From Pseudomonadota bacterium (lineage in GTDB: Bacteria; Bdellovibrionota_F; JAHFAK01; JBDREC01), in assembly GCA_043820105.1 (NCBI GenBank), contig JBDREC010000103.1, forward strand, positions 15,405 to 79,404: a DNA stretch of 64,000 bases, read 5' to 3'. Positions 27,545-54,903 of the stretch are shown here, piece by piece. A program made the position numbers and the translations under genes. The notes beneath the pieces are model-generated. The model ran no database searches. It had not been told where the DNA came from and saw nothing but the letters and a program-made list of their open reading frames with translations. The first letter of the stretch is position 1. Each line of letters starts with the position of its first letter.

Positions 27545-27573
27545 TACCGCTAAAAGAAAAAGGGGTTTTGTTA

Positions 27574-28962
27574 ATGGTAATGCAAAAAAAATTATTAATT
27601 GCTGATGATGAATATTCTGTTAGGGCATCATTATCTTTAATACTTGGCAAGAAATATTCCATTGTTGAAGCAGATAGTTTTACTTCATGCATTGATGCTT
27701 ATAAAAATAATGATATTTCTCTGACCATTCTAGATATTGACTTTAAAGAAGATAAAGATGGACTTAATCTTTTAAAGCAAATTAGGCAGATTGATAAATC
27801 AGCACCTGTTATTATGCTATCAGATATTATTTCAATAAATAAAATAGTGGAATCCATGAAACTTGGGGCTTACGATTATATTGCAAAATCTTCAGATAAC
27901 CTCAAAGAAGATCTCTTAATTAGAATTGAAAACTGTTTGCGTAGAAGCGTAAGAGAAAAATGCTATGAACTTTTAAAGACTAAAGTAAAAAAAGAACATC
28001 ATATTGTAACACAAGATAAAAGTATTTTGGCAGCCCTGAATGAAATTAATTCAATAGGTGAAATGAATATTTTAATAGAAGGTGAGACAGGTGTTGGAAA
28101 AACTCCTGTTGCTCTTTATGCAAACACTGTTTTGTCAAGCAGCAGTAAAGCTAGACCCTTTGTTCGCATAAATTGTGCAGGTTTGAATAGGGCCAGACTC
28201 CAGGATGAACTTTTTGGCCATAAAAAAGGTGCATATACTGGAGCTGAAAATGATAAGCAGGGGCTTGTAGAGCTAGCTAATAATGGAGATCTGTTTTTTG
28301 ATGAAATAGGGGACCTTGACCTTGAGTGCCAAGCTGAGCTACTAATGTTTTTAGATAGCGGTGAGTTTAGAAGACTTGGAGATCCAATTTTAAGGAGTAC
28401 AAATTGCAGGATTGTCTGTGCCACAAATAGTAATTTAAAACAAAAAGTTAATGATGGAAGTTTTAGACACGATCTTTATTCAAGAATTTCTCAGTGTCCG
28501 TTTGTAATCCCTCCTTTGAGAGATAGAAAACAGGATATTAAAATAATTATGGAATATTATATTAATGAGTTCGCAGGTTTTGATAAACCTTACGAAAAAA
28601 AAATATTAGAAACATTTAACGATTATCATTGGTATGAAGGAAATGTGCGTGAATTAAAAAATGCAGTTCTTTACATGTGTCAAAAATCAAAGAAAGAAGA
28701 GATGATTAAGTTTTCTCATATTAATTATGAGTATCTTAAGGAAAATAGTTCCTTTAATAATAATGGTCAGCAAAAGCTCATTGATAAGGAAAAAATATTT
28801 GATTTAGGCCTTGAAAATTATCTGAAATATATTGAAAAGGATATTTATAAAGAAATAATCGATGGAGAAAAGGATTTAAGAATTCTTGCTAAAAAGTTAA
28901 AAGTTCCTGAATCCACATTTTATAGAAAACTTAAAAGCTATAAGATCAGCAAAGATTACTGA
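27574..28962 (+). CDS. Sigma-54-dependent response regulator (NtrC family)
   Basis: Receiver domain (LLIADDE ... LDIDF), AAA+ Walker A GETGVGKT, sigma-54 interaction-like GAYTGA, C-terminal HTH. Confidence 0.8.
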   Translation: MVMQKKLLIADDEYSVRASLSLILGKKYSIVEADSFTSCIDAYKNNDISLTILDIDFKEDKDGLNLLKQIRQIDKSAPVIMLSDIISINKIVESMKLGAYDYIAKSSDNLKEDLLIRIENCLRRSVREKCYELLKTKVKKEHHIVTQDKSILAALNEINSIGEMNILIEGETGVGKTPVALYANTVLSSSSKARPFVRINCAGLNRARLQDELFGHKKGAYTGAENDKQGLVELANNGDLFFDEIGDLDLECQAELLMFLDSGEFRRLGDPILRSTNCRIVCATNSNLKQKVNDGSFRHDLYSRISQCPFVIPPLRDRKQDIKIIMEYYINEFAGFDKPYEKKILETFNDYHWYEGNVRELKNAVLYMCQKSKKEEMIKFSHINYEYLKENSSFNNNGQQKLIDKEKIFDLGLENYLKYIEKDIYKEIIDGEKDLRILAKKLKVPESTFYRKLKSYKISKDY

Positions 28963-35592: not shown

Positions 35593-37218
35593 ATGAATAA
35601 AAAAAAATTAATATACAGTTCGATAAAAGCCATTAAAATTAGTGAACCTAGGATTGAACATTTACAAAAAACAATTGAAAACTTGCTTGGCATAGTTGAA
35701 TTTGAATATAAAGGAAAACCCGTCAAAATAGATGCTTTTAGATTAAAAAAGCTTAAAACATGGGCTAATAATCATTGTCATTATTCTTCTTTTATTAATT
35801 TTGACCTTGCTCGTGAATGTAATATTAACTGTGTTTTTTGTGTTCATCACGGTGACCCGAAAGATCTAATCTTTGAAAATGGCAAGTGTCATATTTCAGA
35901 AGAAGAGTTTTATACTAGATTAAAATATTACAATCCAACCTTACAAACTGGTTTGTTTATACCTTTATATAGGTGGAGAGAAGCTCTTCTTAGTGAAAAA
36001 TCGATAAAATATTTTAAAAAAATTAGAGAAAAAACTAATGGATTATTGACATTCTGGTCAAATGGATCCGTTTTAACGGAAAAAGTTATTAAAAAATTAA
36101 GTAAACTTAAACCAATTTTTTTAATGCTATCGTTAAACAATGCAAGAGAAGAATATCGCTTCAAATTTATGAATGATAAAAATCCTAAAATAGCCATAGA
36201 TTCTCTTAAACTTCTAGATAAACATCAGATAGCCTATGCTGTTAGTATTTTAAAATGGCCAGGTGTTGATATTGAAAGTCTTGAAGAAACTGTTTTTTAC
36301 GTATCAAAACACAATCCAATTTTCATTAGATTTATACTGCCGGGTTTTACAAAATATTCTAACCTTCCTAAAAAACACCAATTTGAAAACATTGAAGATG
36401 AATGGAAATGTATTATTAAATTGGCCAATAAACTGAGAAATAAAATATCCTGTCCTTTGCTTACTGTGCCGATGGTGTATGAAGATGATTTCTATCATAA
36501 GAAGATAGATAAATTAATAGTAGGGGGGGTAGTGAAAAACGCCCCTGCTTACAATTTAATAAAAAACAAAGACATTATCCTTGGAATTAACAATATTACA
36601 GTTGGAGGAAGACAAGAGGGAGTTGATTATTTAACAAGTCTTTATGAATATAAAAAACTCAAAAAAATTAAGCTGAAAGTCTTAAGACAAAAACAAATAA
36701 TTTATGTTACATTAACAAAGCATCCATATAGTTTTCCTTATACTAGAGAATATGAAGAAATTTATTCATTTCCCTTTGGTATGATTTTTGCCAATGGGTT
36801 TGATGATATGACAATCCAGGGAATAGCCAAAATTATTGAAGAAAACAAAGCAAAAAATGTAGTTATATTTGTAAGTGATTTAATAAAACCATCCTTCTTA
36901 AAAACAATTAAAAGGTTAAAATTAAAACAATATTTAAGGGATAATTTTAAAGCAAAGTTTAGAGTAGAAACAGCTGAGAATGATTTTTTTGGCAAAGCAA
37001 TCTTACCAGGAAGTCTACTTGTTTGCGATGATTACATAAAAAGAATTAAAACTTTATTAAAGGAAAATATAAAGATAGATCTTATTATAATTCCCTCCTC
37101 CATATTTTTTTCTTCAATGGGCTGGAAGAGAGATTTAAAGGGAGATATATTTAAAAAAATAGAAAAAGAATGCAAAATAAAAGTAGAAATAATTGATTGC
37201 GAGATAATGAATAATTAA
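35593..37218 (+). CDS. Radical SAM enzyme with internal PDZ-like domain
   Basis: CxxxCxxC (CNINCVFC) near residue 77; PDZ-like segment LIVGGVVKNAPAYNLIKNKDIILGINNITVGG; 541 aa. Confidence 0.6.
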   Translation: MNKKKLIYSSIKAIKISEPRIEHLQKTIENLLGIVEFEYKGKPVKIDAFRLKKLKTWANNHCHYSSFINFDLARECNINCVFCVHHGDPKDLIFENGKCHISEEEFYTRLKYYNPTLQTGLFIPLYRWREALLSEKSIKYFKKIREKTNGLLTFWSNGSVLTEKVIKKLSKLKPIFLMLSLNNAREEYRFKFMNDKNPKIAIDSLKLLDKHQIAYAVSILKWPGVDIESLEETVFYVSKHNPIFIRFILPGFTKYSNLPKKHQFENIEDEWKCIIKLANKLRNKISCPLLTVPMVYEDDFYHKKIDKLIVGGVVKNAPAYNLIKNKDIILGINNITVGGRQEGVDYLTSLYEYKKLKKIKLKVLRQKQIIYVTLTKHPYSFPYTREYEEIYSFPFGMIFANGFDDMTIQGIAKIIEENKAKNVVIFVSDLIKPSFLKTIKRLKLKQYLRDNFKAKFRVETAENDFFGKAILPGSLLVCDDYIKRIKTLLKENIKIDLIIIPSSIFFSSMGWKRDLKGDIFKKIEKECKIKVEIIDCEIMNN

Positions 37219-37235
37219 AAGAATTAAGGATATAT

Positions 37236-37439
37236 ATGTCAAATCCAAATCTTTCAAATACTAAAGACTTCATTTATAGATACAAAATAAATACCAATAA
37301 ACCAGAAATGGATCTTGTTTCATTTTATAAACAGCAAATTAAAGACTTATTAGAGATTGTTGATCTATATTCTAGCAATAAGAAAATTAACTTAAATGGA
37401 TTTTCTTTTATAAATAAAAATAAAATTCACAAACTCTAA
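37236..37439 (+). CDS. Small protein (67 aa) between the two radical SAM genes; candidate precursor peptide or accessory factor
   Basis: AAGGA RBS 8 nt upstream; no Cys; C-terminus NLNGFSFINKNKIHKL rich in aromatic/Asn/Lys residues. Confidence 0.4.
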   Translation: MSNPNLSNTKDFIYRYKINTNKPEMDLVSFYKQQIKDLLEIVDLYSSNKKINLNGFSFINKNKIHKL

Positions 37440-37464
37440 TTAATATTATTTTAAAGAAAAAAAT

Positions 37465-38265
37465 ATGAATTTAAGTTTCAAGTTAACAAATAAATGCAAT
37501 TATAAGTGTAAGTACTGCTATTTAGCTCCTACTAAAAAAACAACTAATTTAAAATTAGAACATTTTGATAAGTTTCTTCAGTTCGCTGATCCAAAAAAAG
37601 ATTTAATAACCCTGTCAGGGGGTGAACCAACTTTGCACCCTGAAATAGATAAGATCTTAAGGCGCCTTGAGCATCACCAGATACGAATCTGTACAAATGG
37701 CACTTATCTTCAAAATATAATCCAAATGTTGGTACCTGAACATACAACTATTGATCTAAGTTTCCATTATTTTAACCGCCAAATTAAAAATGCTATTTCT
37801 CTTCTCATAAAATATAAGATAGAATATTTTATTAATATTGTCATACATGATGCAACTAAAAATAGGTTAAAAGAAATTATTGAACATACAAAACCTACAA
37901 AAAATTATCATCTTCTACACCCAACTGCAACAGATTCAAACACTATAGATGAAATCCAAGAAAATCAGTGGCGAACTTTAGTAAAAACAGCTAAAATTAT
38001 TTTTGATAAATATAATAAAAAAGTTTTTTATGAAAAATCATATAAAGATAAAACAGATAACTATTTTAGAAAAAAAATATGCTCTGGAACATATTCCAAT
38101 TTTATTGATGAGTATGGAAGAATATATCCATGTTCCTTCGGACCTGAATATGGTTTACCCTCTCTTAAGAAAACAGGTTCAATAAATTTTCATTCGAATT
38201 GTCCTTATTTGAAAAGTTCTATAGATAAAACTAAGACTTGCCCTTTTTTTATGGTGTTGCTGTAA
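37465..38265 (+). CDS. Radical SAM enzyme with C-terminal Cys-rich auxiliary-cluster (SPASM/twitch-like) region
   Basis: CxxxCxxC (CNYKCKYC) at residues 11-18; C-terminal Cys at CSGT, YPCSF, SNCPY, KTCPF. Confidence 0.65.
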   Translation: MNLSFKLTNKCNYKCKYCYLAPTKKTTNLKLEHFDKFLQFADPKKDLITLSGGEPTLHPEIDKILRRLEHHQIRICTNGTYLQNIIQMLVPEHTTIDLSFHYFNRQIKNAISLLIKYKIEYFINIVIHDATKNRLKEIIEHTKPTKNYHLLHPTATDSNTIDEIQENQWRTLVKTAKIIFDKYNKKVFYEKSYKDKTDNYFRKKICSGTYSNFIDEYGRIYPCSFGPEYGLPSLKKTGSINFHSNCPYLKSSIDKTKTCPFFMVLL

Positions 38266-38269
38266 AATT

Positions 38270-38395
38270 TTAGATTATTTTCAAATTCACAGTTTTATCC
38301 TTAACTGATCTTATAGGTTTCTCAATAGTTTTTCTCATAATAGATTCAGAAATTTCTTTGGTATTTTTTTTTATTCTAGTTTTTTTTGCTGGCAT
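38270..38395 (-). CDS. Unannotated 41-codon Lys-rich small ORF (MPAKKTRIKKNTKEISESIMRKTIEKPIRSVKDKTVNLKII)
   Basis: ATG at 38393-38395 on minus strand with GGAGA RBS approx 9 nt upstream; below the ORF-track length cut-off. Confidence 0.3.
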   Translation of the reverse strand: MPAKKTRIKKNTKEISESIMRKTIEKPIRSVKDKTVNLKII

Positions 38396-38631
38396 CTTAG
38401 TTTTCTCCTGTTTTAAACAAAATACATAATAATAATTTTATCGCAAGTTGTCATGATTGTCAAATTGTTTGTAATTTATTACATAGTGTTTCAAAATAAT
38501 CTGAAAAATTGCTGTGGGTTTAAAAGAATATTTTAAATTGACTTTGATGCAATAATACTCAAATGTTTAGCACAAAAATTGGTTAAAATATTATTTTATA
38601 TGCCAATTTTAATCATTAATTACACATTAAA

Positions 38632-39612
38632 TTGAAATTTATCAATATGGAAAATATAAGCAAACTATTTATAGAAGCCTTAAAGTTAAATAGTCTTGAA
38701 TTGCTTCGCCAAATACCTAAATCAGATTTACACAACCATGGCTTGCTTGGAGGAAGGCTAGATGAATATAAGAAATGGCAAAGATGTAATATTCCAAAAC
38801 CTCCTAATCGATTTTATAGTTTTAAAGCTTTTACAGACTATGTTGATAATGAAATTGCAATTAATTTCAAAGGGTGTAATTTACAGGACCTAAAACAGAA
38901 AATTACTTTTCTTATTGAATCAGCCTTTAGAGAAGCAAGAAAAGATAGCATTAAAATATTTGATATGAGTGTTGATGTATCTCTGCAAAATCTCTTTCAT
39001 GGAAATATAAAAGAGTTAATAAAATTTTTAAGTAATATTCATAAAAAAATAGCACCTCAAATTATTTATCGCCCATGTCTTGGAATAATTCGAACTACTA
39101 AACTTGAAGAATTTGAAAAACTTGTGTTTTCTTGTATTGAATCAGGTTTTTTTAAGTCAATAGATCTTTATGGAGATGAATATTATGGAAATATTAAGTC
39201 ATTTAGAAAAATATTTCAACGAGCAAAACAAGCAGGATTGAAATTAAAAATGCATGCAGGGGAATTTCGAGATGCAAGTTATGTAATAAAATGTATTGAA
39301 ACACTCGAAATTGATGAGATTCAACATGGCATATCAACTGCAAAATCCTTAGAAGCAATGAAATATCTCTATAGAAACAAAATTCGGTTAAATATCTGTC
39401 CTACAAGTAACATTAAGTTAAATAGAATTAAAAATTATGCTATTCATCCAATTCGTATTTTATATGATAATGGTGTGAATGTGACAATTAATTCAGATGA
39501 TATTATGATCTTCAATCAATGTGTTTCTGAAGAATACTTGAATCTTTTTAATGCTGATTTATTTAGCGCAAATGAACTGGATAATATTCGTATAACTGGA
39601 TTAGATCATTGA
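38632..39612 (+). CDS. Adenosine/AMP deaminase-like amidohydrolase
   Basis: PKSDLHNHGLLGG (metal-binding HxH near N-terminus) and VTINSDD near C-terminus resemble the adenosine deaminase family. Confidence 0.5.
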   Translation: MKFINMENISKLFIEALKLNSLELLRQIPKSDLHNHGLLGGRLDEYKKWQRCNIPKPPNRFYSFKAFTDYVDNEIAINFKGCNLQDLKQKITFLIESAFREARKDSIKIFDMSVDVSLQNLFHGNIKELIKFLSNIHKKIAPQIIYRPCLGIIRTTKLEEFEKLVFSCIESGFFKSIDLYGDEYYGNIKSFRKIFQRAKQAGLKLKMHAGEFRDASYVIKCIETLEIDEIQHGISTAKSLEAMKYLYRNKIRLNICPTSNIKLNRIKNYAIHPIRILYDNGVNVTINSDDIMIFNQCVSEEYLNLFNADLFSANELDNIRITGLDH

Positions 39613-39667: not shown

Positions 39668-40192
39668 TCAGCTAAGACACGTAATGTGCTCTGGCGCTAC
39701 TTTCCCAAGTGTCTTAACAAAAGTAACTTTTGAGTCATTTAAGTCATAAAAATCTTTTAATATACTTTCTTGGATATAGCCATTTTTTAAGTAAAATTGC
39801 CTGGTAGACTCATATTGAGGCTTAGAAGAAGTTTCAGCATATATATTTTTTCCGCCAAAACTGGCTATTTTTTGTTCTGTTTCTTTTAATAAATTTGACC
39901 CTATTTTTTGTCCTCTACAATCATTAGAAATTGCAATCCAATATAAATCATAACTACTTTTTGTACAAGCAATGTGCCCGAAAGAAGTGAAACCAACTGT
40001 TTTATTGTTATATTCTGAAAAGATAAAATTATATCCGCTTTTAATTCCTTTATCTAATCTTTCTTTAACAATCTCAACTGCTGTATCAATTTCATAATCA
40101 TGAAAAAAGCCAGTTGACGCAGTGATGAGTTTTACATTTTCGAGATCTTTTACTGATACTTCTTCTCGAAAATTTAATGATTTGTTTTCCAT
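39668..40192 (-). CDS. GNAT family N-acetyltransferase
   Basis: Acetyl-CoA-binding motif region CRGQKIGSNLL; last gene of the KamA/ATP-grasp operon. Confidence 0.65.
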   Translation of the reverse strand: MENKSLNFREEVSVKDLENVKLITASTGFFHDYEIDTAVEIVKERLDKGIKSGYNFIFSEYNNKTVGFTSFGHIACTKSSYDLYWIAISNDCRGQKIGSNLLKETEQKIASFGGKNIYAETSSKPQYESTRQFYLKNGYIQESILKDFYDLNDSKVTFVKTLGKVAPEHITCLS

Positions 40193-40222
40193 ATAATCCT
40201 TAAATAAATTAGTTAATAATAT

Positions 40223-41212
40223 TTAAATAGAATCCGAGATGATACTTTTTACAATTTCAAAAATGTCAATTCCACTTTCTGCGGCGGCTGCTACAAATCC
40301 AGCATCTGGAGAAAGACATGGATTAATATTGATTTCAAGTACAAATGGATTATTGTTTTTATCAATTCTAAAATCAACCCTTGCATAACCCATAACATCA
40401 AAAACATTCCAACACTTTACAGATATATTTCTAAGTTTTTTTAATAAGGTATAATCTTTTTTCTCAAATTTAAAATTCCGCTTTGTATTGATATATTCAA
40501 AGGACTGTTCATCCCATTTTGCTTTATAAGCAATAATTTTAGGTTTATTTTCAGGAAAATTAATAAATTGAATTTCAGCACACGGCAAAACTGTTGGTGT
40601 TTTCTTTTGATTTCCAAGCAAAGCGATGTTAAATTCTCTGCCATCAATATATGATTCAATAAAATATTCATTTAGAATTATTTTATTTTTGTTCTTGTAC
40701 TTTATTAAGTCATTTTTTGTATAAAAAACAGACTTATCATTTAAGCCTTTTGATGCATGATCATAAATAGATTTTAATATATATGGGGGTTCAAATGAAA
40801 TATTATCATTTGATAAATCACTTAACAAAACCGAATTAGGAGTAGAAACATTATTTAGGCGTAATAATTTTTTTAATAATAATTTGTTTGTTGTTAAATT
40901 AAAGGTAAAAGCTTTTGAGCCTGTATATTTTATTCCCATTGAATCAAGCAATGCAGGAATGATAGCAGCAAGATTATCTTTATTTGCAATTGACTCAACC
41001 AAATTAAAAACAAATGATATTTTATTTTCTTTTAATTTTATTAATAGCTTTTCTAGGTTAAGGTTTACAGGAATTTCAATTGGATGATAAGCAAGCTTGC
41101 TTAAAGCATTTTTAATATATTTAACTTGAGTATATGTATCAAGATCATCTAAGGATGATTGAGAAGATAATTTGCCATATAATATTCCAATATTTTTCAT
41201 GTCTTGTTTCAT
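40223..41212 (-). CDS. ATP-grasp ligase, D-Ala-D-Ala ligase-like
   Basis: ATP-grasp C-terminal motifs (YIDGREFNIALLG; YARVDFRIDKNNNPFVLEININPCLS); 4-nt overlap with upstream ATP-grasp gene. Confidence 0.65.
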   Translation of the reverse strand: MKQDMKNIGILYGKLSSQSSLDDLDTYTQVKYIKNALSKLAYHPIEIPVNLNLEKLLIKLKENKISFVFNLVESIANKDNLAAIIPALLDSMGIKYTGSKAFTFNLTTNKLLLKKLLRLNNVSTPNSVLLSDLSNDNISFEPPYILKSIYDHASKGLNDKSVFYTKNDLIKYKNKNKIILNEYFIESYIDGREFNIALLGNQKKTPTVLPCAEIQFINFPENKPKIIAYKAKWDEQSFEYINTKRNFKFEKKDYTLLKKLRNISVKCWNVFDVMGYARVDFRIDKNNNPFVLEININPCLSPDAGFVAAAAESGIDIFEIVKSIISDSI

Positions 41213-42183
41213 TTAATTCTTTTTTTTGCAAAATAAATTATTTTACTGATTAATTCTTCATAAGAAATATTTACTTTTTTACAAAGTATTATAAGATCTC
41301 CGACAACAGGATGTATGCCAGCCAAGGGATTTACTTCTAAAAAATTTGGTCTGCCATATTTATCACTTTTAATGTCTATTCTTCCAGCATCCCTACAACC
41401 TAAAACTTTCCAGGCATTTAAAGCAAGATTCATTGCCAGCCTTGCTTCTTCATCATTAACAAGATTATATTCGACTCTATCTAAATAGTTTTCTTTATTT
41501 GAATAAGTATAAAGCTCTTTTTCCGCGTTTTGATTTAGCAATATTTCTAATGTACCAATTGCTTCTGCCTCATCGCCTGTTCCTATGATTCCAACTGTAA
41601 ATTCTCTGCCTGGTAAAAAATCTTCAGCTAAAACAGGTTGCGAGAAATTTTTTAGTAAATTTTCTGCCATTGATTTTAGCTGATCAATATTTTCAACTTT
41701 TGAAAGATGAGATATCCCTTTTCCAGTGCCTTCTGCAAGAGGTTTAACAATAATAGGGAAGTTTAAATTAAAATTATCTATATCCTTAATATCTTCAATA
41801 ATAAAAAAATCAGGTGTTAATAATTTTGCATCTCTTACAATTCTTTTAGTCATTGCCTTATGAAGGGTTAATGATAAAACCAAAGGATCAGAAAATGTAT
41901 AGGGGATATTATAAGCATCAAGGATTGCAGGAACTTGAGCTTCCCTTCCAAAACCCTTAACACCTTCTGCAATATTAAAGACCAGATCCCATTTTTCTTC
42001 CTTGCATAGTCTTGAAACAAGGTTTTTTATGTGTCCAATTCTTGTAGTTTGATGCCCTAAACTTTTTAGTGTAGTGTCTATTGCATCAATAGTTGCTAGT
42101 TGATCAAATTCCGCAACTTCTTCTTTTCCATAACCCATTTCTAGATAATCATCTTTTAGATCATATGTAATTCCAATATGCAT
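41209..42183 (-). CDS. ATP-grasp ligase, D-Ala-D-Ala ligase-like
   Basis: GREFTVGIIGTGDEAEAIGTLEIL and GRIDIKSDKYGRPNFLEVNPLAG match Ddl-family ATP-grasp patterns. Confidence 0.65.
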   Translation of the reverse strand: MHIGITYDLKDDYLEMGYGKEEVAEFDQLATIDAIDTTLKSLGHQTTRIGHIKNLVSRLCKEEKWDLVFNIAEGVKGFGREAQVPAILDAYNIPYTFSDPLVLSLTLHKAMTKRIVRDAKLLTPDFFIIEDIKDIDNFNLNFPIIVKPLAEGTGKGISHLSKVENIDQLKSMAENLLKNFSQPVLAEDFLPGREFTVGIIGTGDEAEAIGTLEILLNQNAEKELYTYSNKENYLDRVEYNLVNDEEARLAMNLALNAWKVLGCRDAGRIDIKSDKYGRPNFLEVNPLAGIHPVVGDLIILCKKVNISYEELISKIIYFAKKRIK

Positions 42184-42219
42184 TGGAAACTCCTTTTTAA
42201 AATATTTATTTTAATAAAA

Positions 42220-43527
42220 TTATTTTGATTTAGCTTTTTTGTTTAAGGGATATTTATAAAGTAATCCTTTATAATTTTTAAGGATGATATCATTTTCATT
42301 GATACTATCAACATAATTGGGAAGAAGTGGTATTTTACCACCACCATCAGGCGCATCAATAACAAATGTTGGAATAGCATACCCACTTGTATGCCCTCGT
42401 AAGCCATTTATAATTTCAAGACCTTTTTCTATGGGGGTTCTGAAATGAGCTGAACCCACAATTGGATCACATTGATATAGATAATAGGGTCTAACACGAA
42501 TTTTTAGTAAATTATGAAAAAGTGTTTTCATTGTTTTAATATTATCATTAATCCCTGCAAGCAAAACTGTTTGACTTCCAAGAGGGATACCATAATCAGC
42601 TAATCTGTTGCATGCTTGACTAACTTCAGGTGTTATTTCATTCGGGTGAGTGAAATGAATACTTAAATATAAAGGTTGATATTTTTTAAGTATCCTTAAT
42701 AAATTTATTGTAATACGCTGAGGTAATACTACAGGTGCCTTGGTTCCTATGCGAATTATCTCAACATGAGGAATTTGTCTGAGTCTACTGAGTAAATATT
42801 CAATTTTATTATCTACAACAATGAGCGGATCTCCTCCTGACAACAATACATCTCTGATATTTTTATTTTGTTCTATATAGTTTAAAGCTTTTTCCCAATA
42901 ATTAACTTTAAAACGATATTTATCATTTGGTCTCATGATTCGAGATCGAGTACAATATCTGCAATTTGAGGTGCAAAATTTTGTTACTAAAAGTAAAACC
43001 CTATCAGGATATCTATGAACAATTCCAGGAACTGGACTGTCTTTATCTTCGCCAAGGGGATCAAAGTTTTCTTCTGGAGAATGTATGAGTTCTTTAGTTA
43101 TAGGAATTACAGTTTTTTTGATGTAACTATTTTTTGCCAGGCTTGCATAATAGGGGGTCATTGTAACTAAAAACTTATTTTCAAACAATGATATAGCTTT
43201 TTTTTCATCTTCACTTAATTTTATTATTTTTTCTATTTTTGAAAGACCGTGCACTCTGTTTTTCAATTGCCATTGCCATGAATTCCAATCATTATTACTG
43301 GCTTCAGGATAATATTTATTTCTAAATTCATCTGATGTTGAACTTATTGTAAAAAATTCATTTGCTTTTGAATCCCTCTTGTCTAAATAATTTATAGATA
43401 GGATACCATTCTGTAATGAATTTGTTTCTAAAGAATTGGAATTTATTAGATTACTAGCAAGTAAATTATTCTCAATAGAAAGTGGCGGAGGCTCTCCATC
43501 TTCTAAACCGATTATTTTATTTATCAT
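42220..43527 (-). CDS. Lysine 2,3-aminomutase-family radical SAM enzyme (KamA/AblA/EpmB-like) with approx 80-aa N-terminal extension
   Basis: WQWQLKNRV ... TPYYASL N-terminal signature; CxxxCxxC as CTSNCRYCTRS; extension rich in Asn/Ser/Leu. Confidence 0.75.
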   Translation of the reverse strand: MINKIIGLEDGEPPPLSIENNLLASNLINSNSLETNSLQNGILSINYLDKRDSKANEFFTISSTSDEFRNKYYPEASNNDWNSWQWQLKNRVHGLSKIEKIIKLSEDEKKAISLFENKFLVTMTPYYASLAKNSYIKKTVIPITKELIHSPEENFDPLGEDKDSPVPGIVHRYPDRVLLLVTKFCTSNCRYCTRSRIMRPNDKYRFKVNYWEKALNYIEQNKNIRDVLLSGGDPLIVVDNKIEYLLSRLRQIPHVEIIRIGTKAPVVLPQRITINLLRILKKYQPLYLSIHFTHPNEITPEVSQACNRLADYGIPLGSQTVLLAGINDNIKTMKTLFHNLLKIRVRPYYLYQCDPIVGSAHFRTPIEKGLEIINGLRGHTSGYAIPTFVIDAPDGGGKIPLLPNYVDSINENDIILKNYKGLLYKYPLNKKAKSK

Positions 43528-43751: not shown

Positions 43752-44557
43752 TTAGATTCTGCCTAAAAAGTGGGCAAAATAAATTGTAAAAAACTTCAGG
43801 ATTTTAAATGTCTTTATTTAAAAAACAATTTCATTATAAGTTAGATTATATTTTCCGCAATAATATTTATAGCAAAAAAGGCTGGAATATTACCTGTTTC
43901 AGCCCTCAATATCCACAAGCTAAACCAAGACGCTTTATATTAAAAGAAATCGCAGTAAAATAAAGCTGCAATCGAAAATTTAATTTCCCACGATATCTAC
44001 ATCTGCAAAAACCGTATCCTCTTTTCAATGCTGATATCGTTCCCTCAATCGCATTTCTATTTTTCATCTCTTCTTTATACTCATCTGTCTTCATCAACTT
44101 TCTTGCTTCATCATGATCGACTACTCTCTGTCGCCAGACTGATAACAATTGATAACTAAAACCTGCATATTCCAGGTCAAGCTCTAATGCAATTTTCCAG
44201 TCTAATCTAAATATCAGATTTTGAATCGTTTGCCTGTCAGGAAGCTTTTCCAGAAACTGTAATATTGTTACACACATTAATAACCTCGGTGACACTGGTG
44301 GTCTTCCACCTTCTTTATACATCTGTTCGAAATCAGTATCTAATATTTTGGGAAATATAAATTCATGACATACCTTCACATGATCTCTGATTTCTGGAAA
44401 CACATTTAACATGATACCCGCCTTGAATAATGATTGTTGATTGTACTTTGATAAGTCCTTTGGCATCTATATTATATAAGCATTATCTGCACTTTGTAAA
44501 GATCTTGAGCTTAATTATTTGCTTAATATTTTAGCCCACTTTTTAGGCAGAATCTAA
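43752..44557. mobile_element. Internally deleted IS5/IS1182-like element (approx 806 bp) with perfect 24-bp terminal inverted repeats
   Basis: TTAGATTCTGCCTAAAAAGTGGGC at 43752-43775 is the exact reverse complement of 44534-44557; encloses a transposase ORF lacking the catalytic core. Confidence 0.75.
43906..44466 (-). pseudogene. Truncated transposase: IS5/IS1182-like N-terminal domain fused to C-terminal tail, DDE core missing
   Basis: N-terminal GRPPVSPRLLMCVTILQFL ... (DUF772-like) joined to C-terminal AIEGTISALKRGYGFCRCRYRG ... NIKRL; only 186 aa. Confidence 0.6.
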
Positions 44558-44712
44558 TTAAATTTTAAACCTATATCTTTGTAAATTGTTATTAAATTTT
44601 TAGTTTTGCTCTGACCCTAAAATTCCCAAAATTCCAACCATAAAATTCTGACCAAAATTTAAAAATTATTCTAAAATTATTGGCAATTGTAGAATGTCAA
44701 ATCCTAATCATA

Positions 44713-45000
44713 TTAAACTTTAGCTGCGCCAATGACACAGCTCAAAAGATATTGAACGCCATTGTTAAGGTTACCTGAAATGCAATAACTCATTTCGTCT
44801 GTTTCATTACCGCTAGTGCAACTGGGAACGACCATCCAGTATGAAGGTCCGGAACCCACACCGCAATCAGCACCTGAGGCGCTTTCTCCTGATTGGCATG
44901 ATTTGCCCCGCGTACTTGGCGTGGTAGCACCTGAGCCAGTCGAACAGTACAGTCTTTTTAAGTTGAGTAGAGTGTGTAATATTGGAGGAGAATACTTCAT
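44713..45000 (-). CDS. Small Cys/Gly/Ser-rich protein with conserved MKY...P.L...L..L.YC.TGSGA N-terminus (paralogue 1)
   Basis: ATG at 44998-45000; paralogue of 63233-63577 with the same N-terminal pattern and Cys roughly every 12-15 residues. Confidence 0.5.
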   Translation of the reverse strand: MKYSPPILHTLLNLKRLYCSTGSGATTPSTRGKSCQSGESASGADCGVGSGPSYWMVVPSCTSGNETDEMSYCISGNLNNGVQYLLSCVIGAAKV

Positions 45001-45301
45001 AATTACCACCTTTATAACTGAATAACGCTGAGAAGATACGCAACAGTTAGTAGCTTTTCATACTTACTTCTATTAATCTTTAACCTGATAGGTTACCTAT
45101 TTTAGTTATCACCTCGTGTGTGGGTTCTAATGCATGTGACCGAACAAACACTTAGGAAATAGAATTAAACTATGCAAAACCAAAAATATTGTCAATGTGG
45201 AATATTGTCAATTATATTTTCTTCACTAACTGAGCAGGTAGTAGTTATGGGACTGACATGCGTATTAATAATCAAGATTATGCATTAGAAAAAAATTCAA
45301 A

Positions 45302-45320
45302 GGGGTCAGGCCTTGACAAT
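45302..45320 (+). repeat. REP-like element copy (GGGGTCAGGCCTTGACA core) upstream of RAYT gene
   Basis: Same core at 45397-45420 (direct) and 46567-46588 (inverted). Confidence 0.5.
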
Positions 45321-45396
45321 AGACAACAAATCAATAATTTTACTGAAAAATATAGCTAACTTTTGAAAATACATGAAATTATCAATATTAGAAATA

Positions 45397-45420
45397 GGGG
45401 GGGGGCAGGCCTTGACATTC
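45397..45420 (+). repeat. REP-like element copy (GGGGGCAGGCCTTGACATTC) upstream of RAYT gene
   Basis: Core CAGGCCTTGACA shared with 45302-45320 and the inverted copy at 46567-46588. Confidence 0.5.
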
Positions 45421-45589
45421 GGCAGCAGGTTCCCTTTTATACAAAGTGTTTTTTTCCTTTAATTCTTTTTCTTTCTCCATTTTTAAGACAAATCTATAAA
45501 GACTTTGAGCTACTGAAGCATTATTAATTGAACTCTGTTTGAATATTAAGCTCCATATATTTAGGAACTAATCAATTTAGGGGTAATTT

Positions 45590-46582
45590 ATGCCTAGACC
45601 TAAAAGAATTGAATATGAAGGTGCTTGGTATCACGTCATGAATAGAGGTGCTAGCAAGAAAAACATTTTTCATTCACATGATGACAGGAACTTTTTTTTA
45701 AAAATGCTAGCGCATGTCAGTGATCAATGGAATTTTCAGACACATGCCTATTGTTTAATGACAAATCATTATCATTTGCTTGTGCATACACCAAATCTTG
45801 GCTTGTCAGAAAGTATGCGACATCTTTCTTCAATTTATACAATGAGATATAATAAGAAATATAAAAGGGATGGAGCATTGTTTAGAGGTAGATTCAAATC
45901 AATATTGTTAGATAGGGATGATTGTGCATCAGCAATATTAAGATACATTCACCAAAATCCCGTAAAGGCAGGTTTATGTAAAAATGTAGAATCATACAAG
46001 TGGTCTAGTCACAGAGCATATTTAAATGAAAAAAATAAACCGTCATTTCTATATACAGATGAGATATTGAAAGATTTTGCAAAGATTAGTTCTAAGGCAA
46101 GGCGAAAATTGCATGAGTTTGTGACTGGAAGAGAATCTAAAGATTTTATTAACTCTATAGAAGGGCCAAGACCTGTATCTGTAATGGGATCAGAGGGTTT
46201 TAGAGATTGGATAAAAGATAATTATTTATATAAAGTAAACAAAGATAAGTTAATTTCAACAGCAAGAAGTAATAAGCGCCCTGAAATTATACCAAAGCAA
46301 ATGTTATCATATGTTAGCTCTGAATTCAGTGTCAGTAAAAAAAGCATTATGGAAAATAAGTCTGGATCCATTGCAAATATACCAAGACTGACATATTTAT
46401 ATTTATTGCATAAAATTGCAGGTTTTACACATAATGAAATCGCTGAGATAAGCAAATCAGGAAACAAAGCTTCAGTAGCTCAAAACATTTATCGTTTTTC
46501 AAGGAGATTGGAAGAGGATGAATGTTTGGGCGAAAGGATTAAAGGTATGAAGGGGAATTTGTTGTCGAATGTCAAGGCCTGA
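45590..46582 (+). CDS. REP-associated tyrosine transposase (IS200-like HuH Y1 transposase) with C-terminal HTH-like extension
   Basis: YHVMNRG N-terminus, HuH motif HYHLLVH, catalytic Tyr context RYIHQNPVKAGL; flanked by inverted REP-like repeats. Confidence 0.7.
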   Translation: MPRPKRIEYEGAWYHVMNRGASKKNIFHSHDDRNFFLKMLAHVSDQWNFQTHAYCLMTNHYHLLVHTPNLGLSESMRHLSSIYTMRYNKKYKRDGALFRGRFKSILLDRDDCASAILRYIHQNPVKAGLCKNVESYKWSSHRAYLNEKNKPSFLYTDEILKDFAKISSKARRKLHEFVTGRESKDFINSIEGPRPVSVMGSEGFRDWIKDNYLYKVNKDKLISTARSNKRPEIIPKQMLSYVSSEFSVSKKSIMENKSGSIANIPRLTYLYLLHKIAGFTHNEIAEISKSGNKASVAQNIYRFSRRLEEDECLGERIKGMKGNLLSNVKA

Positions 46583-46588
46583 CCCCTC
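46567..46588 (-). repeat. REP-like element copy in inverted orientation immediately downstream of RAYT gene
   Basis: GAATGTCAAGGCCTGACCCCTC is the reverse complement of the upstream REP core; overlaps the RAYT stop region. Confidence 0.5.
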
Positions 46589-46591
46589 GTC

Positions 46592-46933
46592 TTAGTTCTT
46601 TCTCCATTTTTGATACTTTTCTTTCATGATTTTGCTTAAACCTGCTTTTTTTTCATTTACCCAGCTTGCTTCACCAATAAAATATTTGCATTCTTCATGC
46701 AATCGTTCCTTGACCGCCTCCCAGGCATCCATGAATGATTCAATCAGCTCCTGGTATTTTTTCTGTCTTTCTTTTGGAGTGCAGCCCAGACCCTCATAAA
46801 TCGGAGATGGGGTAATTAAAGGATCTTCTTTCCCTTCAGCATAATAAGCATAGGATGAAAACTTGTTCCAAAACTGGTTCCAGGGCCCAGTCATAGTTAT
46901 GGAATCTAAGAGTAACATGAAAATAGCAATCAT
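46592..46933 (-). CDS. Hypothetical protein
   Basis: ORF only; no recognised motif. Confidence 0.3.
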   Translation of the reverse strand: MIAIFMLLLDSITMTGPWNQFWNKFSSYAYYAEGKEDPLITPSPIYEGLGCTPKERQKKYQELIESFMDAWEAVKERLHEECKYFIGEASWVNEKKAGLSKIMKEKYQKWRKN

Positions 46934-49260: not shown

Positions 49261-49338
49261 TTTGAATTGTTTTATATTATTATTTATTCCAATTAATTAT
49301 AACAATTTAAACTTAAGTTTATGCATATGGAGCTAATA

Positions 49339-50748
49339 ATGACCAAAAAAGAACTGGATTTAATTTTACATGAAGGGGAAAACTATAAAATCGAGTTCAA
49401 AGAAAATGTTAACTCTGATTTGTCAAAAGAAATGGTTGCTATGGCAAATTCATCTGGAGGTAGGATATTTATTGGGATTAATGATAAAAACGAAGTAATA
49501 GGTGTGAAAGCAACAAATGCTTTGTTATCTAAAATTCAGAATATGGCCCAGGATTGTGATCCCTCAATTATTATCAACATTAATACTTATAAAAATATTT
49601 TAATTATTAATGTTAAAGAAGGTTTAAATAAACCATATCGCTGTAGTAAAGGTTTTTATACTAGGAATGGTTCAAATTCACAGAAAATGACAACCAGAGA
49701 GATAACTGAATTTGTGCAAGCAGAAGGTAATGTTAGGTTTGATGAAAAGCTTCGGGAAGATATAAATATAAGTAAAAAAATTAAAAAAGAACTGCTTAAT
49801 CATTATTTGCAATTAGCAAACATTAATAAGACAATGGATGATGAATTTATACTAGAAAATTTAGGAGTACTGGAGCAAAAGAATAAGAAATCATATCTTA
49901 ATAATGCTGGGCTATTGTTTTTTTGCGATTCTACTAACCCACATCTTCATTATGCAAATATTACTTGTGCTTTATACAAGGGCAGTGAAAAGCTAAATGT
50001 TTTGGACAGAAAAGATTTTTCATCTGATATAATTTCTAATATCGAAGATACCATGTTGTTTTTGAAAAAGCATTTAAATCTTAGATATGAAATAACATCA
50101 TTAAGAAGAAAGGAAATTCTTGAGCTGCCTGAAGTTGCTTTGCGTGAAGCAGTAGTCAACGCTGCTTGCCACAGAGACTATTTTGAAAAAGGTGCCAATA
50201 TTATGGTTGAGATATTTGATGATAGGGTCCAAATAACTAACCCTGGTGGATTGCCTAAAGGCTTGTTACCAGAAAAATTTGGAACCAGAAGCGTATCAAG
50301 AAATCCTTTAATCACTTCATTGTTCCATCGTGTTGGCTACATTGAAAAAATGGGAACAGGTATAGGTAGAATAAGAAAGTCCCTCAAGGAATCAGGTAAT
50401 TCAGAAGCTGTATTTGAATATGACAGTTTTTTTTCAGTGATATTTAAAAGATCTATCTTAGAAAATGGAGCTAGTTCAGACATACAAGTTACCGGACAAG
50501 TCACCGGACAAGTTCCCGAACATGTCACCAAACTACTTAGTATATGCAAAGGAGAGTTGTCTCGTAGTGAATTGCAGGATATATTAAAATTAAAGCACAG
50601 AGAGAACTTTGTGAATTTATATCTAAACCCAGCATTGGAATCTGCTTTTATCGAAATGACAATTCCAGGCAAACCAAGATCAAGCAAACAAAAATACCGC
50701 TTAACAAAAAAAGGGAAAGATTATTTAAAGAAACTGCCTGAAAATTAA
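49339..50748 (+). CDS. Schlafen/AlbA_2-like domain protein with HATPase_c_4-like domain and C-terminal wHTH (COG2865-type regulator)
   Basis: N-terminal KELDLILHEGENYKIEFKE ... ANSSGGRIFIGIND; central REAVVNAACHRDYF ... NPGGLP ... SRNPLI ... MGTGIGRI; VTGQVTGQV linker repeat; start at ATG 49339 with GGAG RBS. Confidence 0.6.
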   Translation: MTKKELDLILHEGENYKIEFKENVNSDLSKEMVAMANSSGGRIFIGINDKNEVIGVKATNALLSKIQNMAQDCDPSIIININTYKNILIINVKEGLNKPYRCSKGFYTRNGSNSQKMTTREITEFVQAEGNVRFDEKLREDINISKKIKKELLNHYLQLANINKTMDDEFILENLGVLEQKNKKSYLNNAGLLFFCDSTNPHLHYANITCALYKGSEKLNVLDRKDFSSDIISNIEDTMLFLKKHLNLRYEITSLRRKEILELPEVALREAVVNAACHRDYFEKGANIMVEIFDDRVQITNPGGLPKGLLPEKFGTRSVSRNPLITSLFHRVGYIEKMGTGIGRIRKSLKESGNSEAVFEYDSFFSVIFKRSILENGASSDIQVTGQVTGQVPEHVTKLLSICKGELSRSELQDILKLKHRENFVNLYLNPALESAFIEMTIPGKPRSSKQKYRLTKKGKDYLKKLPEN

Positions 50749-52980: not shown

Positions 52981-54804
52981 TTAATTAATTCTTTTTAAAT
53001 ATACATGTACTTGTTCATAAATTTCCTTATAAGTTCCATCTTTCTTCAACCAGTTATTTGTATCAGTAGATATCCAATCTTCTTTTTTATATTCTTTTTT
53101 TCCTTCCTTTTTTACATCTAATCTATTTTGTAATGAATTGATAATTTTTAAAATATAGTTATCAAAATCTTCTCCAATCTCCAAGCAATACTGTGAATTT
53201 TTTGAAATATATTTTTGACCGTGTAATGTTTTAAGTTTATCTTTTAAATTATCAATAGTTGAAATACTATTAATATCATTTTTGAAAAAATAGATTGCAC
53301 TCAAAGCAAGTATTACATCATTTATATAATTATTTTGAAGAATTTCATACTTCATAATATTATTGTTTTTTATCTGATTAATCTTTTCTGATATTCTATA
53401 AGATAGCATTAATTTATGAAATTGGTCTTCTTCATTTATTGTCATGCTAAAAATATTATCATAACAATGATCTGAAAAAACAAGTTTATATCTTCCTTTT
53501 GTAGATATTGGTATTTGGAGAAAAAAAGACATAAAAGATATTCCAATATCTATGTTCTTAATCTTTAAATGCAAAGGACTTTTACCAAAAGGATTACGGT
53601 ACTTGCTTTTTTCAACAGTTGCCCATTCACCGTCCTTTTTGTCATAAAAGATTCCAACATCATCAAGGAATTTAAAAATTTTAACTTGTATTCTATCACC
53701 TGAATGTAGATCTCTTGTGCTAATAGCATTTTGACTATTACTGGCAACAGCAATATCCTTTGAAATTTTTGAAATTTTTGATTTTTTATTTATTTTTGTA
53801 AGTCGCATTAGAATCTGTACATTGTCAGGCAATTCGTTTACAATTCTTGTTAATGTCTTTGTAGTCTGTCCACCATTAACAATTTGAAAATTAGTAATCT
53901 GTAGTTTATTTTCATTTAATATCTTAAAGTCTTCACATATTGAATTGATACCATTGTTTAATATCCAAAAATTGGAACGACTACCTTTTGAGTATTCGTG
54001 TTTAATTTTTGAATTGATTTCATTTTCTCCTTTATAATAACGGACATTTAAAGCTAAAATCATCTCTTTATGTTTTTCTATTATAGGCCTCAAGGAGTTC
54101 GCTTTTATACTCGTAACAATAGTTTCAATTTCGGTTTTATCGTTATCATCATAAAAGTTTGAACATTTTTTAAAATATTCTTTTTCTACAATATCTATGA
54201 TTATTTCATTTTTAGGCATTTCAGTATCATCATAAAGCATTTCAAGACGGTTATAGTCAAAAAAATCAGGATAAAAATTAATTCCTTTATCTTCATAATT
54301 AGTGAATAATGCCATTATGTCAGTTTTGATATTGGTAGAATCAAAGGTGTTGTCTATATAATAAAAGTAAATATTATAATTATTATTTTCAATATTTTGA
54401 GGTGTTAATAAAGTATTAATTTCGTTATCAATTATTTTTTGTAACTTTTTGTTCGGTTTTTGCTCATCATAATTTATTTTTAAAAGCCGATCTATAAATT
54501 TTTTATTTTTTCTAATCTCATCTGTATTTAATAGATTATTATTTGAATATTTGAATTGAAATACATATATATCATGGTTATTTTGATTAGTAAAAATAGC
54601 ATCATTCCCTAAATCATTTGACATATCAACAATGTGCTCTTTAATGAACTCATTAATGTCTATGCCATCGTAGTCAAATTCAATTATTTTCCTGCTAAAA
54701 CACTCTTTAATAATAAAATGACCAAATGCTGTACCATCATTAGGATAATTAAAGGTTTCTCTTAAATCTGAAACCTGATCTTTTATTCTTTCATAAAAAC
54801 TCAT
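52981..54804 (-). CDS. AIPR-like abortive-infection family protein (putative)
   Basis: N-terminal restriction-endonuclease-like region (YDGIDI ... GNDAIF ... IYVFQFKYS) and central FQIVNGGQTTKTL motif as recalled for AIPR; start set at ATG 54804 with AGGAGA RBS. Confidence 0.45.
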   Translation of the reverse strand: MSFYERIKDQVSDLRETFNYPNDGTAFGHFIIKECFSRKIIEFDYDGIDINEFIKEHIVDMSNDLGNDAIFTNQNNHDIYVFQFKYSNNNLLNTDEIRKNKKFIDRLLKINYDEQKPNKKLQKIIDNEINTLLTPQNIENNNYNIYFYYIDNTFDSTNIKTDIMALFTNYEDKGINFYPDFFDYNRLEMLYDDTEMPKNEIIIDIVEKEYFKKCSNFYDDNDKTEIETIVTSIKANSLRPIIEKHKEMILALNVRYYKGENEINSKIKHEYSKGSRSNFWILNNGINSICEDFKILNENKLQITNFQIVNGGQTTKTLTRIVNELPDNVQILMRLTKINKKSKISKISKDIAVASNSQNAISTRDLHSGDRIQVKIFKFLDDVGIFYDKKDGEWATVEKSKYRNPFGKSPLHLKIKNIDIGISFMSFFLQIPISTKGRYKLVFSDHCYDNIFSMTINEEDQFHKLMLSYRISEKINQIKNNNIMKYEILQNNYINDVILALSAIYFFKNDINSISTIDNLKDKLKTLHGQKYISKNSQYCLEIGEDFDNYILKIINSLQNRLDVKKEGKKEYKKEDWISTDTNNWLKKDGTYKEIYEQVHVYLKRIN

Positions 54805-54903
54805 AATAAATCTCCTATTTAAAAATTCAATTGTATCTATCATGTCATGAATTAATAGTCAAAATTCACTCAAGCTAATTAAAAAATTTGGTTCTCGTCC
54901 GTC

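Follow-up and report, generated by a model that had tools for sequence, protein, structure and literature searches.

A widely conserved gene cluster combining a lysine 2,3-aminomutase, two Ddl-fold ATP-grasp ligases and a GNAT acetyltransferase as a candidate route to a small beta-lysine amide

Beta-lysine is known as an osmolyte precursor, as a modifier of elongation factor P (EF-P) and as an antibiotic building block. In the Ngg/AsnO system a GNAT-ATP-grasp fusion makes the osmolyte N-acetylglutaminylglutamine amide, while LysX links an amino acid with the acidic tail of the carrier LysW and carnosine synthase ligates the carboxylate of a beta-amino acid to an amino acid. A deacetylase-like gene also occurs near the yodP-kamA genes of Bacillus subtilis. 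The combination of a KamA enzyme with a GNAT acetyltransferase (ablA/ablB) is described as the route to N-epsilon-acetyl-beta-lysine in two reports (PMC3543383; PMC11201294). The AblA/AblB systems, which occur in methanogens and in some bacteria, and the yodP-kamA pair of B. subtilis both encode a lysine 2,3-aminomutase together with a GNAT protein, as does the locus presented here, a run of four genes (positions 39668-43527) in a 64-kb stretch of DNA (64,000 nucleotides (nt); contig JBDREC010000103.1, positions 15,405 to 79,404; hereafter the window). The source is a metagenome-assembled genome (MAG) named 'Pseudomonadota bacterium'. Two ATP-grasp ligases are inserted in this locus, and we consider it moderately probable that its operon makes beta-lysine from lysine and subsequently a small amide or peptide of beta-lysine, N-acetylated and retained in the cell.

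The four genes, all on the minus strand, encode a KamA-family radical SAM/pyridoxal phosphate (PLP) lysine 2,3-aminomutase (42220-43527; 435 amino acids), an ATP-grasp ligase with the fold of D-alanine--D-alanine ligase (Ddl) which is the most conserved partner of KamA (ligase A; 41209-42183; 324 amino acids), a second ligase of the same fold, fused to the GNAT in some relatives (ligase B; 40223-41212; 329 amino acids), and a small GNAT N-acetyltransferase of the 2R7H family, distinct from AblB (39668-40192; 174 amino acids). These open reading frames (ORFs) coincide exactly with those listed in an initial annotation of the window, and its family assignments (KamA, two Ddl-like ATP-grasp enzymes and a GNAT) were reproduced by Pfam, NCBIfam and PDB matches. 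The 4-nt overlap of one gene pair that it reported is located between the ligase A and ligase B genes, which share the start/stop sequence ATGA (AATGAAAC; 41209-41212, minus strand; read from coordinates and sequence), suggesting translational coupling. As the remaining intergenic gaps are just 36 and 30 nt, the four genes look like a single operon. The same four proteins are encoded consecutively in the NCBI annotation (MFH1729762.1 to MFH1729765.1) of the 123,279-bp contig, and all four are singletons in clustering at 90% identity.

The KamA protein harbors the LAM_C and Radical_SAM Pfam domains and aligns over residues 71-429 with the lysine 2,3-aminomutase of Clostridium (PDB 2A5H; E=1e-127). 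Its score lies above the cut-off of the KamA family model (TIGR00238; 334 bits; cut-off: 199) and below that of the AblA equivalog (TIGR03820; 468 bits; cut-off: 525), while the glutamate (424 bits) and arginine (382 bits) aminomutase models also score under their equivalog cut-offs, and the EpmB equivalog (TIGR03821; 236 bits; cut-off: 369) scores lowest among the KamA-type models. When 74 KamA proteins from this type of cluster were aligned to the Clostridium enzyme (2A5H numbering), equivalents of the CxxxCxxC iron-sulphur cysteines (C125, C129 and C132) were observed in the window protein and in all 74 sequences. Equally conserved (74/74) are the equivalents of R134 and K337, which we take to be the carboxylate-binding arginine and the PLP-binding lysine of 2A5H, as well as those of D293 and D330, also found in the window KamA, which presumably hold the lysine epsilon-ammonium group. 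Both lysine-binding aspartates are replaced in glutamate 2,3-aminomutase. The match to 2A5H and the retention of the catalytic and lysine-binding residues in 74/74 sequences thus point to a lysine aminomutase, and KamA very probably belongs to a separate clade of lysine 2,3-aminomutases. It does not group with EpmB (such a grouping would have spoken against the initial annotation): the EpmB score is the lowest and both lysine-binding aspartates are kept. The likeness to EpmB/EpmA lies in a KamA-family aminomutase supplying beta-lysine to a dedicated ligase, whereas the ligases of this operon are ATP-grasp enzymes and not a lysyl-tRNA-synthetase paralogue, and no efp or epmA-like gene is found among the conserved flanking families. 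None of the zinc ligands C268, C375, C377 and C380 is present in the window KamA or in any of the 74 cluster proteins, and the window protein stops near residue 376 of 2A5H, without the zinc/tetramerisation tail found at the C-terminus of the Clostridium enzyme, a domain that all 74 cluster proteins lack as well. It furthermore deviates from the family at eight near-invariant positions, with all catalytic residues retained.

Both ligases contain the Dala_Dala_lig_C domain (ligase A: E=1.5e-23; ligase B: E=1.9e-18) and share 24% identity with each other, while the best-scoring Ddl model of NCBIfam (NF002378) gives 141 bits for ligase A and 113 bits for ligase B (cut-off: 243). Their AlphaFold models (predicted local distance difference test values of 88 and 89 for ligases A and B, respectively) were matched by Foldseek to DdlB with template modelling (TM) scores of 0.77 for ligase A, at 25% identity, and 0.78 for ligase B, the TM scores of both models against DdlB spanning 0.75-0.78 and solved Ddl structures being 15-26% identical. 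The Foldseek searches of both models returned Ddl structures alone and provided no clue to the substrate. Escherichia coli DdlB (identical to 2DLN) was aligned to 82 sequences of ligase A and 67 of ligase B, in all of which the equivalents of K97, K144, E180, E187, K215, R255, D257, E270 and N272 are invariant. Given that the ATP, Mg and catalytic residues are invariant, both ligases should be active, and we infer that they are active carboxylate-amine ligases and not Ddl. The D-alanine-binding residues of Ddl are the E15-S150-Y216 triad and S281/L282. Ligase A carries threonine at the S150 position (80/82), glutamate at Y216 (63/82) and aspartate at L282 (81/82), where ligase B has alanine (65/67), tryptophan (67/67) and glycine (67/67), respectively. 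A further glutamate occupies the position of H63 in ligase A (82/82), a site that is not conserved in ligase B. The residues G276 and S281 are kept in ligase A (81/82 and 80/82), while cysteine (65/67) and alanine (50/67) take their places in ligase B. This check of substrate-specificity residues, which the initial annotation had put forward, therefore found the catalytic residues kept and the D-alanine-binding residues replaced. The acidic residues gained in the pocket of ligase A would suit a cationic diamino-acid substrate such as beta-lysine. Compared with Ddl and VanA, the two ligases have the fold and the ATP, Mg and catalytic residues in common, whereas they differ in their low identity, in scoring under all family cut-offs, in the swapped substrate residues and in their association with KamA. 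Neither a second ddl-like gene nor a YitT gene was found elsewhere in the 64-kb window.

The GNAT protein matches the Acetyltransf_7, Acetyltransf_1 and Acetyltransf_10 families of Pfam. Against the AblB equivalog (TIGR03827) it scores 17.9 bits, far short of the cut-off of 205 bits, and as such is not an AblB orthologue; its 174 amino acids compare with approximately 266 in the two-domain model. The best named family is RimI-like, below its cut-off. Its sole significant relative in the PDB is 2R7H (E=3.8e-28), entitled 'putative D-alanine N-acetyltransferase of GNAT family', a structural-genomics entry in the same GNAT family as the window protein and with a putative substrate. A protein sharing 99% identity with the 2R7H chain is located in a KamA/ligase A/ligase B/GNAT cluster behind a sigma-54 activator (loci L085 and L086), and the 'D-alanine' in the name of the structure probably reflects neighbours annotated as Ddl.

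A homologue search with ligase A produced at least 8000 matches at E<=0.001, the closest outside its own MAG being approximately 60% identical among the matches listed. In a scan of one genome per species, ligase A relatives were confirmed in at least 593 species genomes belonging to more than ten phyla, with hosts among the Thermodesulfobacteriota, Syntrophales/Smithella, Pirellulales, Phycisphaerae, Ignavibacteriales, Spirochaetota, Thermoanaerobaculia, Bacteroidales and others. Among the best 80 relatives, which represent 80 distinct loci, KamA is almost universally followed by ligase A, ligase B and GNAT on one strand. All four genes are adjacent on one strand in 48 of the 58 loci with enough flanking sequence, and the order in the window is the same. 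The extreme homology E-values and the recurrence of this gene order in dozens of unrelated genomes place the four-gene observation far beyond chance. In the complete genome of the cultured Desulfovibrio mangrovi (L084; CP104208.1), a sigma-54 activator is followed by KamA, ligase A, ligase B, GNAT and a GNAT-like deacetylase, in that order. An accessory protein of approximately 580 amino acids, which combines a weak N-terminal GNAT-like domain with a histone-deacetylase-family domain, is found in 16/58 loci. Its deacetylase domain matches acetylpolyamine amidohydrolases (PDB 9GKZ, 6PHR and 3Q9B; E=1e-68 to 1e-60) far better than protein deacetylases (E of approximately 1e-28) and is predicted to be of the small-molecule type, while it differs from the acetylpolyamine amidohydrolases in its extra N-terminal GNAT-like domain and, in some cases, in its fusion to the GNAT of the cluster. 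A tblastn search placed no such accessory deacetylase in the whole 64-kb window.

Several variants of the cluster involve gene fusions. Fusions of ligase B with the GNAT occur in P0136, L031 and L041, a second type of ATP-grasp-GNAT fusion is found in a spirochaete (L023), and the deacetylase and GNAT form a single protein of approximately 750 amino acids in others (e.g. L075). A minimal variant (L065) consists of KamA and ligase A beside a major facilitator superfamily (MFS) transporter, with the GNAT missing. Three loci lack an adjacent KamA (L052, L053 and L082), and no substitute enzyme was found in them. The four genes are a conserved, co-oriented and sometimes fused functional unit. The copy in the window is an ordinary if somewhat divergent example, without the optional deacetylase. 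The strict synteny, the ligase B-GNAT fusions and the type of the accessory deacetylase strengthen the view that all four genes act on one small molecule.

Compared with AblA/AblB, the window operon has two ligases inserted, a shorter and different GNAT, a KamA with an acidic tail carrying an E-P-P motif, and no C-terminal zinc domain. The fusion of ligase B and GNAT in relatives resembles that of GNAT and ATP-grasp ligase in Ngg/AsnO, whereas the ATP-grasp subfamily of the operon differs, an amidotransferase is lacking and the building block would be beta-lysine from a dedicated aminomutase. LysX and carnosine synthase are likewise ATP-grasp ligases, and the window operon is without a separate carrier protein of the LysW kind. 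By analogy of function, AblA/AblB, Ngg and carnosine synthase appear to be the closest counterparts, and the operon is a member of none of these systems. A combination of aminomutase, two ATP-grasp ligases and GNAT was not found in the literature, where only the canonical ablA/ablB was met, in a search that covered few subscription journals, such that prior work is possible. The operon is widely conserved and apparently uncharacterised.

We suggest that the operon functions as follows. KamA would convert L-lysine to beta-lysine (3,6-diaminohexanoate) by a radical SAM/PLP mechanism, a prediction strongly supported by its conserved residues. Each ligase would then activate a carboxylate as an acyl phosphate and couple it to an amine, so that beta-lysine gains one or two amide bonds, the coupling partner being a second beta-lysine, another amino acid or a polyamine. 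The GNAT probably works with ligase B, as the two are fused in some species, and would N-acetylate a free amine, probably a terminal alkyl-amine comparable to the beta-lysine epsilon-amine. The product could serve as a cytoplasmic compatible solute or as a charge-tunable polyamine-like molecule. In about a quarter of the relatives, the acetylpolyamine-amidohydrolase-type enzyme, the gene for which lies outside the repertoire of the window, may strip the acetyl group again. A survey of 571 clustered neighbouring ORFs from the related loci identified no conserved transporter, regulator, target protein or resistance gene. Together with the closer relationship of the accessory deacetylase to acetylpolyamine amidohydrolases, the lack of a conserved target, transporter or resistance gene makes a small-molecule substrate probable. 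The initial annotation had proposed a small beta-lysine-containing amide or oligopeptide rather than the simple acetylated solute, and this proposal gains support from the non-AblB GNAT, the strict synteny and the fusions.

A number of observations weigh against this interpretation. The product is a predicted one, and the substrates of the ligases are not readable from sequence. The alignment of the DdlB E15 column is uncertain for ligase A. Furthermore, the window ligase A has a glycine (G295; 41301-41303) at the site of Ddl S281, where serine is present in 80/82 sequences, giving HPVVGD in place of the consensus HPxHSD, and it shows four further changes at near-invariant sites with no catalytic residue lost. 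The activity of this copy may therefore be altered or weakened, and the changes suggest a shifted specificity or relaxed constraint in this lineage. The sigma-54 activators that lie upstream in some lineages hint at regulation in a manner that is not interpretable, and the absence of an exporter or osmotic regulator is neutral with respect to a role as solute.

The N-terminal extension of KamA bears on a different interpretation of the cluster. Approximately residues 1-70 (43318-43527, minus strand; delimited by alignment to 2A5H, where KamA residue 71 is aligned with residue 7) comprise an acidic motif and a low-complexity linker rich in asparagine and serine. The linear motif LEDGEPPPLS, read directly from the sequence, occupies residues 8-17 (43477-43506, minus strand). 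The initial annotation had described this extension as unusual. The alignment and the NCBI annotation, in which the start of the 435-residue protein is the same (MFH1729765.1), confirm that the extension is real, but it is typical of the family: extensions of 47-110 amino acids are present in all cluster KamAs examined (73 related loci), while the Clostridium enzyme has none. The motif, for which the family consensus is E-T-L-x-x-E-[ED]-[ED]-E-P-P-[SG], is located near the start of the extension and is separated from the WNDWRWQ core by a variable low-complexity linker, the median distance being 62 residues. A [DE]PP sequence occurs within the extension of 70/74 cluster KamAs, against an average of 7.2 and at most 16 across 500 composition-matched shuffles. 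In its make-up the extension is that of a docking or carrier motif on a tether, and the acidic E-P-P tail probably docks a partner enzyme. A more elaborate role, in which the tail on its linker of approximately 60 residues is a built-in carrier or docking arm that passes beta-lysine, or tethers it through a glutamate, to both ligases and the GNAT in a LysW/LysX-like manner, and the amidohydrolase releases or recycles the product, appears unlikely, and a carrier function of the tail is pure speculation. Proline-rich sequences such as EPPP stall ribosomes when EF-P is absent, and the E-P-P(P/S/G) motif could make the synthesis of KamA dependent on EF-P. It is a curious coincidence that the window KamA, an enzyme forming beta-lysine, carries a ribosome-stalling-type EPPP in its tail.

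The tail speaks for an alternative in which the chemistry is directed at a protein or peptide. According to this explanation, the ligases attach beta-lysine to a protein, in the manner of EF-P modification but with a ligase replacing EpmA, or to a glutamate of KamA's own tail, and the GNAT and deacetylase act on the tethered group. Precedents for protein-directed chemistry exist in EpmA/EpmB with EF-P, in LysX with LysW and in RimK. The acidic E-P-P motif on a flexible tail in nearly all KamAs is consistent with this explanation, as is the RimI-like top named family of the GNAT, though under its cut-off. However, the accessory deacetylase is far nearer to acetylpolyamine amidohydrolases than to protein deacetylases, no candidate target gene is conserved beside the cluster, the known members of the Ddl fold join small molecules, and KamA scores weakly against the EpmB model. 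We consider this alternative improbable, even as the best placed of those weighed against a small beta-lysine amide.

Slightly less probable still is a specialised metabolite destined for secretion, for example a beta-lysine-based antibiotic or metal chelator, as in the streptothricin-, negamycin- or blasticidin-type pathways. Natural-product pathways are known to combine an aminomutase and an amide-forming ligase, and published work mentions ATP-grasp and beta-lysine together, while MFS transporter genes adjoin a few of the clusters (L001, L065 and L085). However, neither an exporter nor a resistance gene nor a tailoring enzyme is conserved, and the occurrence of a small, uniform cluster in so many species genomes and phyla fits housekeeping or stress physiology better.

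The plain synthesis of N-epsilon-acetyl-beta-lysine via the AblA/AblB route, with the ATP-grasp genes unrelated to it, is very unlikely. KamA scores highest on AblA among the equivalog models, and KamA and GNAT constitute the known route to this solute, but the GNAT fails the AblB model and is approximately 100 residues shorter than it. Moreover, the ATP-grasp genes, which overlap, are found between KamA and GNAT almost everywhere, several relatives have a ligase B-GNAT fusion, and KamA and ligase A persist in the minimal variant from which the GNAT is missing. Lysine fermentation or catabolism with beta-lysine as first intermediate is more doubtful again. KamA is the first enzyme of clostridial lysine fermentation, but a beta-lysine 5,6-aminomutase, dehydrogenase and cleavage enzyme are neither part of the window cluster nor conserved in the flanks, and ATP-consuming ligases indicate biosynthesis. 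Least probable of all is that the ATP-grasp genes are true D-Ala-D-Ala ligases for the cell wall, as the public annotation of one of them and the Ddl fold of both might imply: the scores are well below the model cut-off, the residues at S150, Y216 and L282, and at E15 as far as its uncertain alignment in ligase A allows, are replaced, and the linkage in the loci examined is to KamA and never to mur or fts genes. True ddl orthology would have spoken against the initial annotation.

If the operon produces a small N-acetylated beta-lysine amide or peptide, it would represent a fourth, apparently unstudied use of beta-lysine, in at least about 590 species genomes. The hosts include sulfate reducers, syntrophs, planctomycetes, spirochaetes, Ignavibacteria, Bacteroidales and others, which are dominant in anoxic sediments and digesters, and the identity of the product would add a small molecule, either a stress solute or a polyamine-like compound, to the physiology of anaerobes. 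It would also correct thousands of 'D-alanine--D-alanine ligase' annotations, give the orphan structure 2R7H a function and define two new substrate specificities in the Ddl fold. As the cluster is present in cultured Desulfovibrio species, the question is directly testable.

Recurring neighbours of the cluster are limited to two-component and sigma-54-type regulators (approximately 10-12 loci each) and lineage-specific genes. A sigma-54-dependent activator is located directly upstream on the same strand in L084 (3857-5293), L085 (3874-5310) and approximately eight further loci, from Desulfovibrio and several other lineages. In the window, the sigma-54 activator lies approximately 13 kb away (27568-28962) and none adjoins the operon. 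A promoter and terminator scan gave no enrichment over shuffles, an Rfam search of the window and eight related loci showed neither a lysine riboswitch nor any other ahead of the operon, and PADLOC left the four operon proteins unmatched. An ORF of approximately 120 amino acids without a Pfam match occurs near the cluster in four loci (e.g. L027, 12132-12491, and L024, 7142-7510). A riboswitch of the c-di-GMP-I-GGC type in L001 (15494-15578, minus strand; 72 bits, exceeding the gathering score), near a PEP-CTERM-type gene, is unrelated to the cluster.

Three genes on the plus strand of the window (35593-39612) converge on the GNAT gene. They encode a radical SAM/DUF512/PDZ protein (35593-37218), a small viperin-like radical SAM protein (37465-38265; PADLOC pVip: E=6e-20; NCBIfam viperin: 57 bits, under the cut-off of 180) and, immediately facing the GNAT from downstream, an adenosine-deaminase-family protein (38632-39612; also PADLOC CARF_ADA: E=2.5e-21), and may form a nucleotide-modifying or defence module. 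Mobile-element remnants are found just upstream of KamA (43906-46933), namely a fragment of a DDE transposase (186 amino acids; 43906-44466, minus strand) and an IS200-like Y1 transposase that carries a DnaA-type helix-turn-helix (45590-46582, plus strand), and the operon may be situated at the edge of a variable region. Further along the window, two defence-type proteins are encoded, one of them a Schlafen AlbA_2/HATPase_c_4/Fic-like_C protein (49321-50748) and the other an AIPR abortive-infection protein (52981-54843). An ORF for DNA polymerase III alpha (56307-58727, plus strand; 806 amino acids) contains PHP, polymerase and finger domains and no C-terminal OB region, the next gene being on the opposite strand, and may represent a truncated or split gene or a pseudogene.

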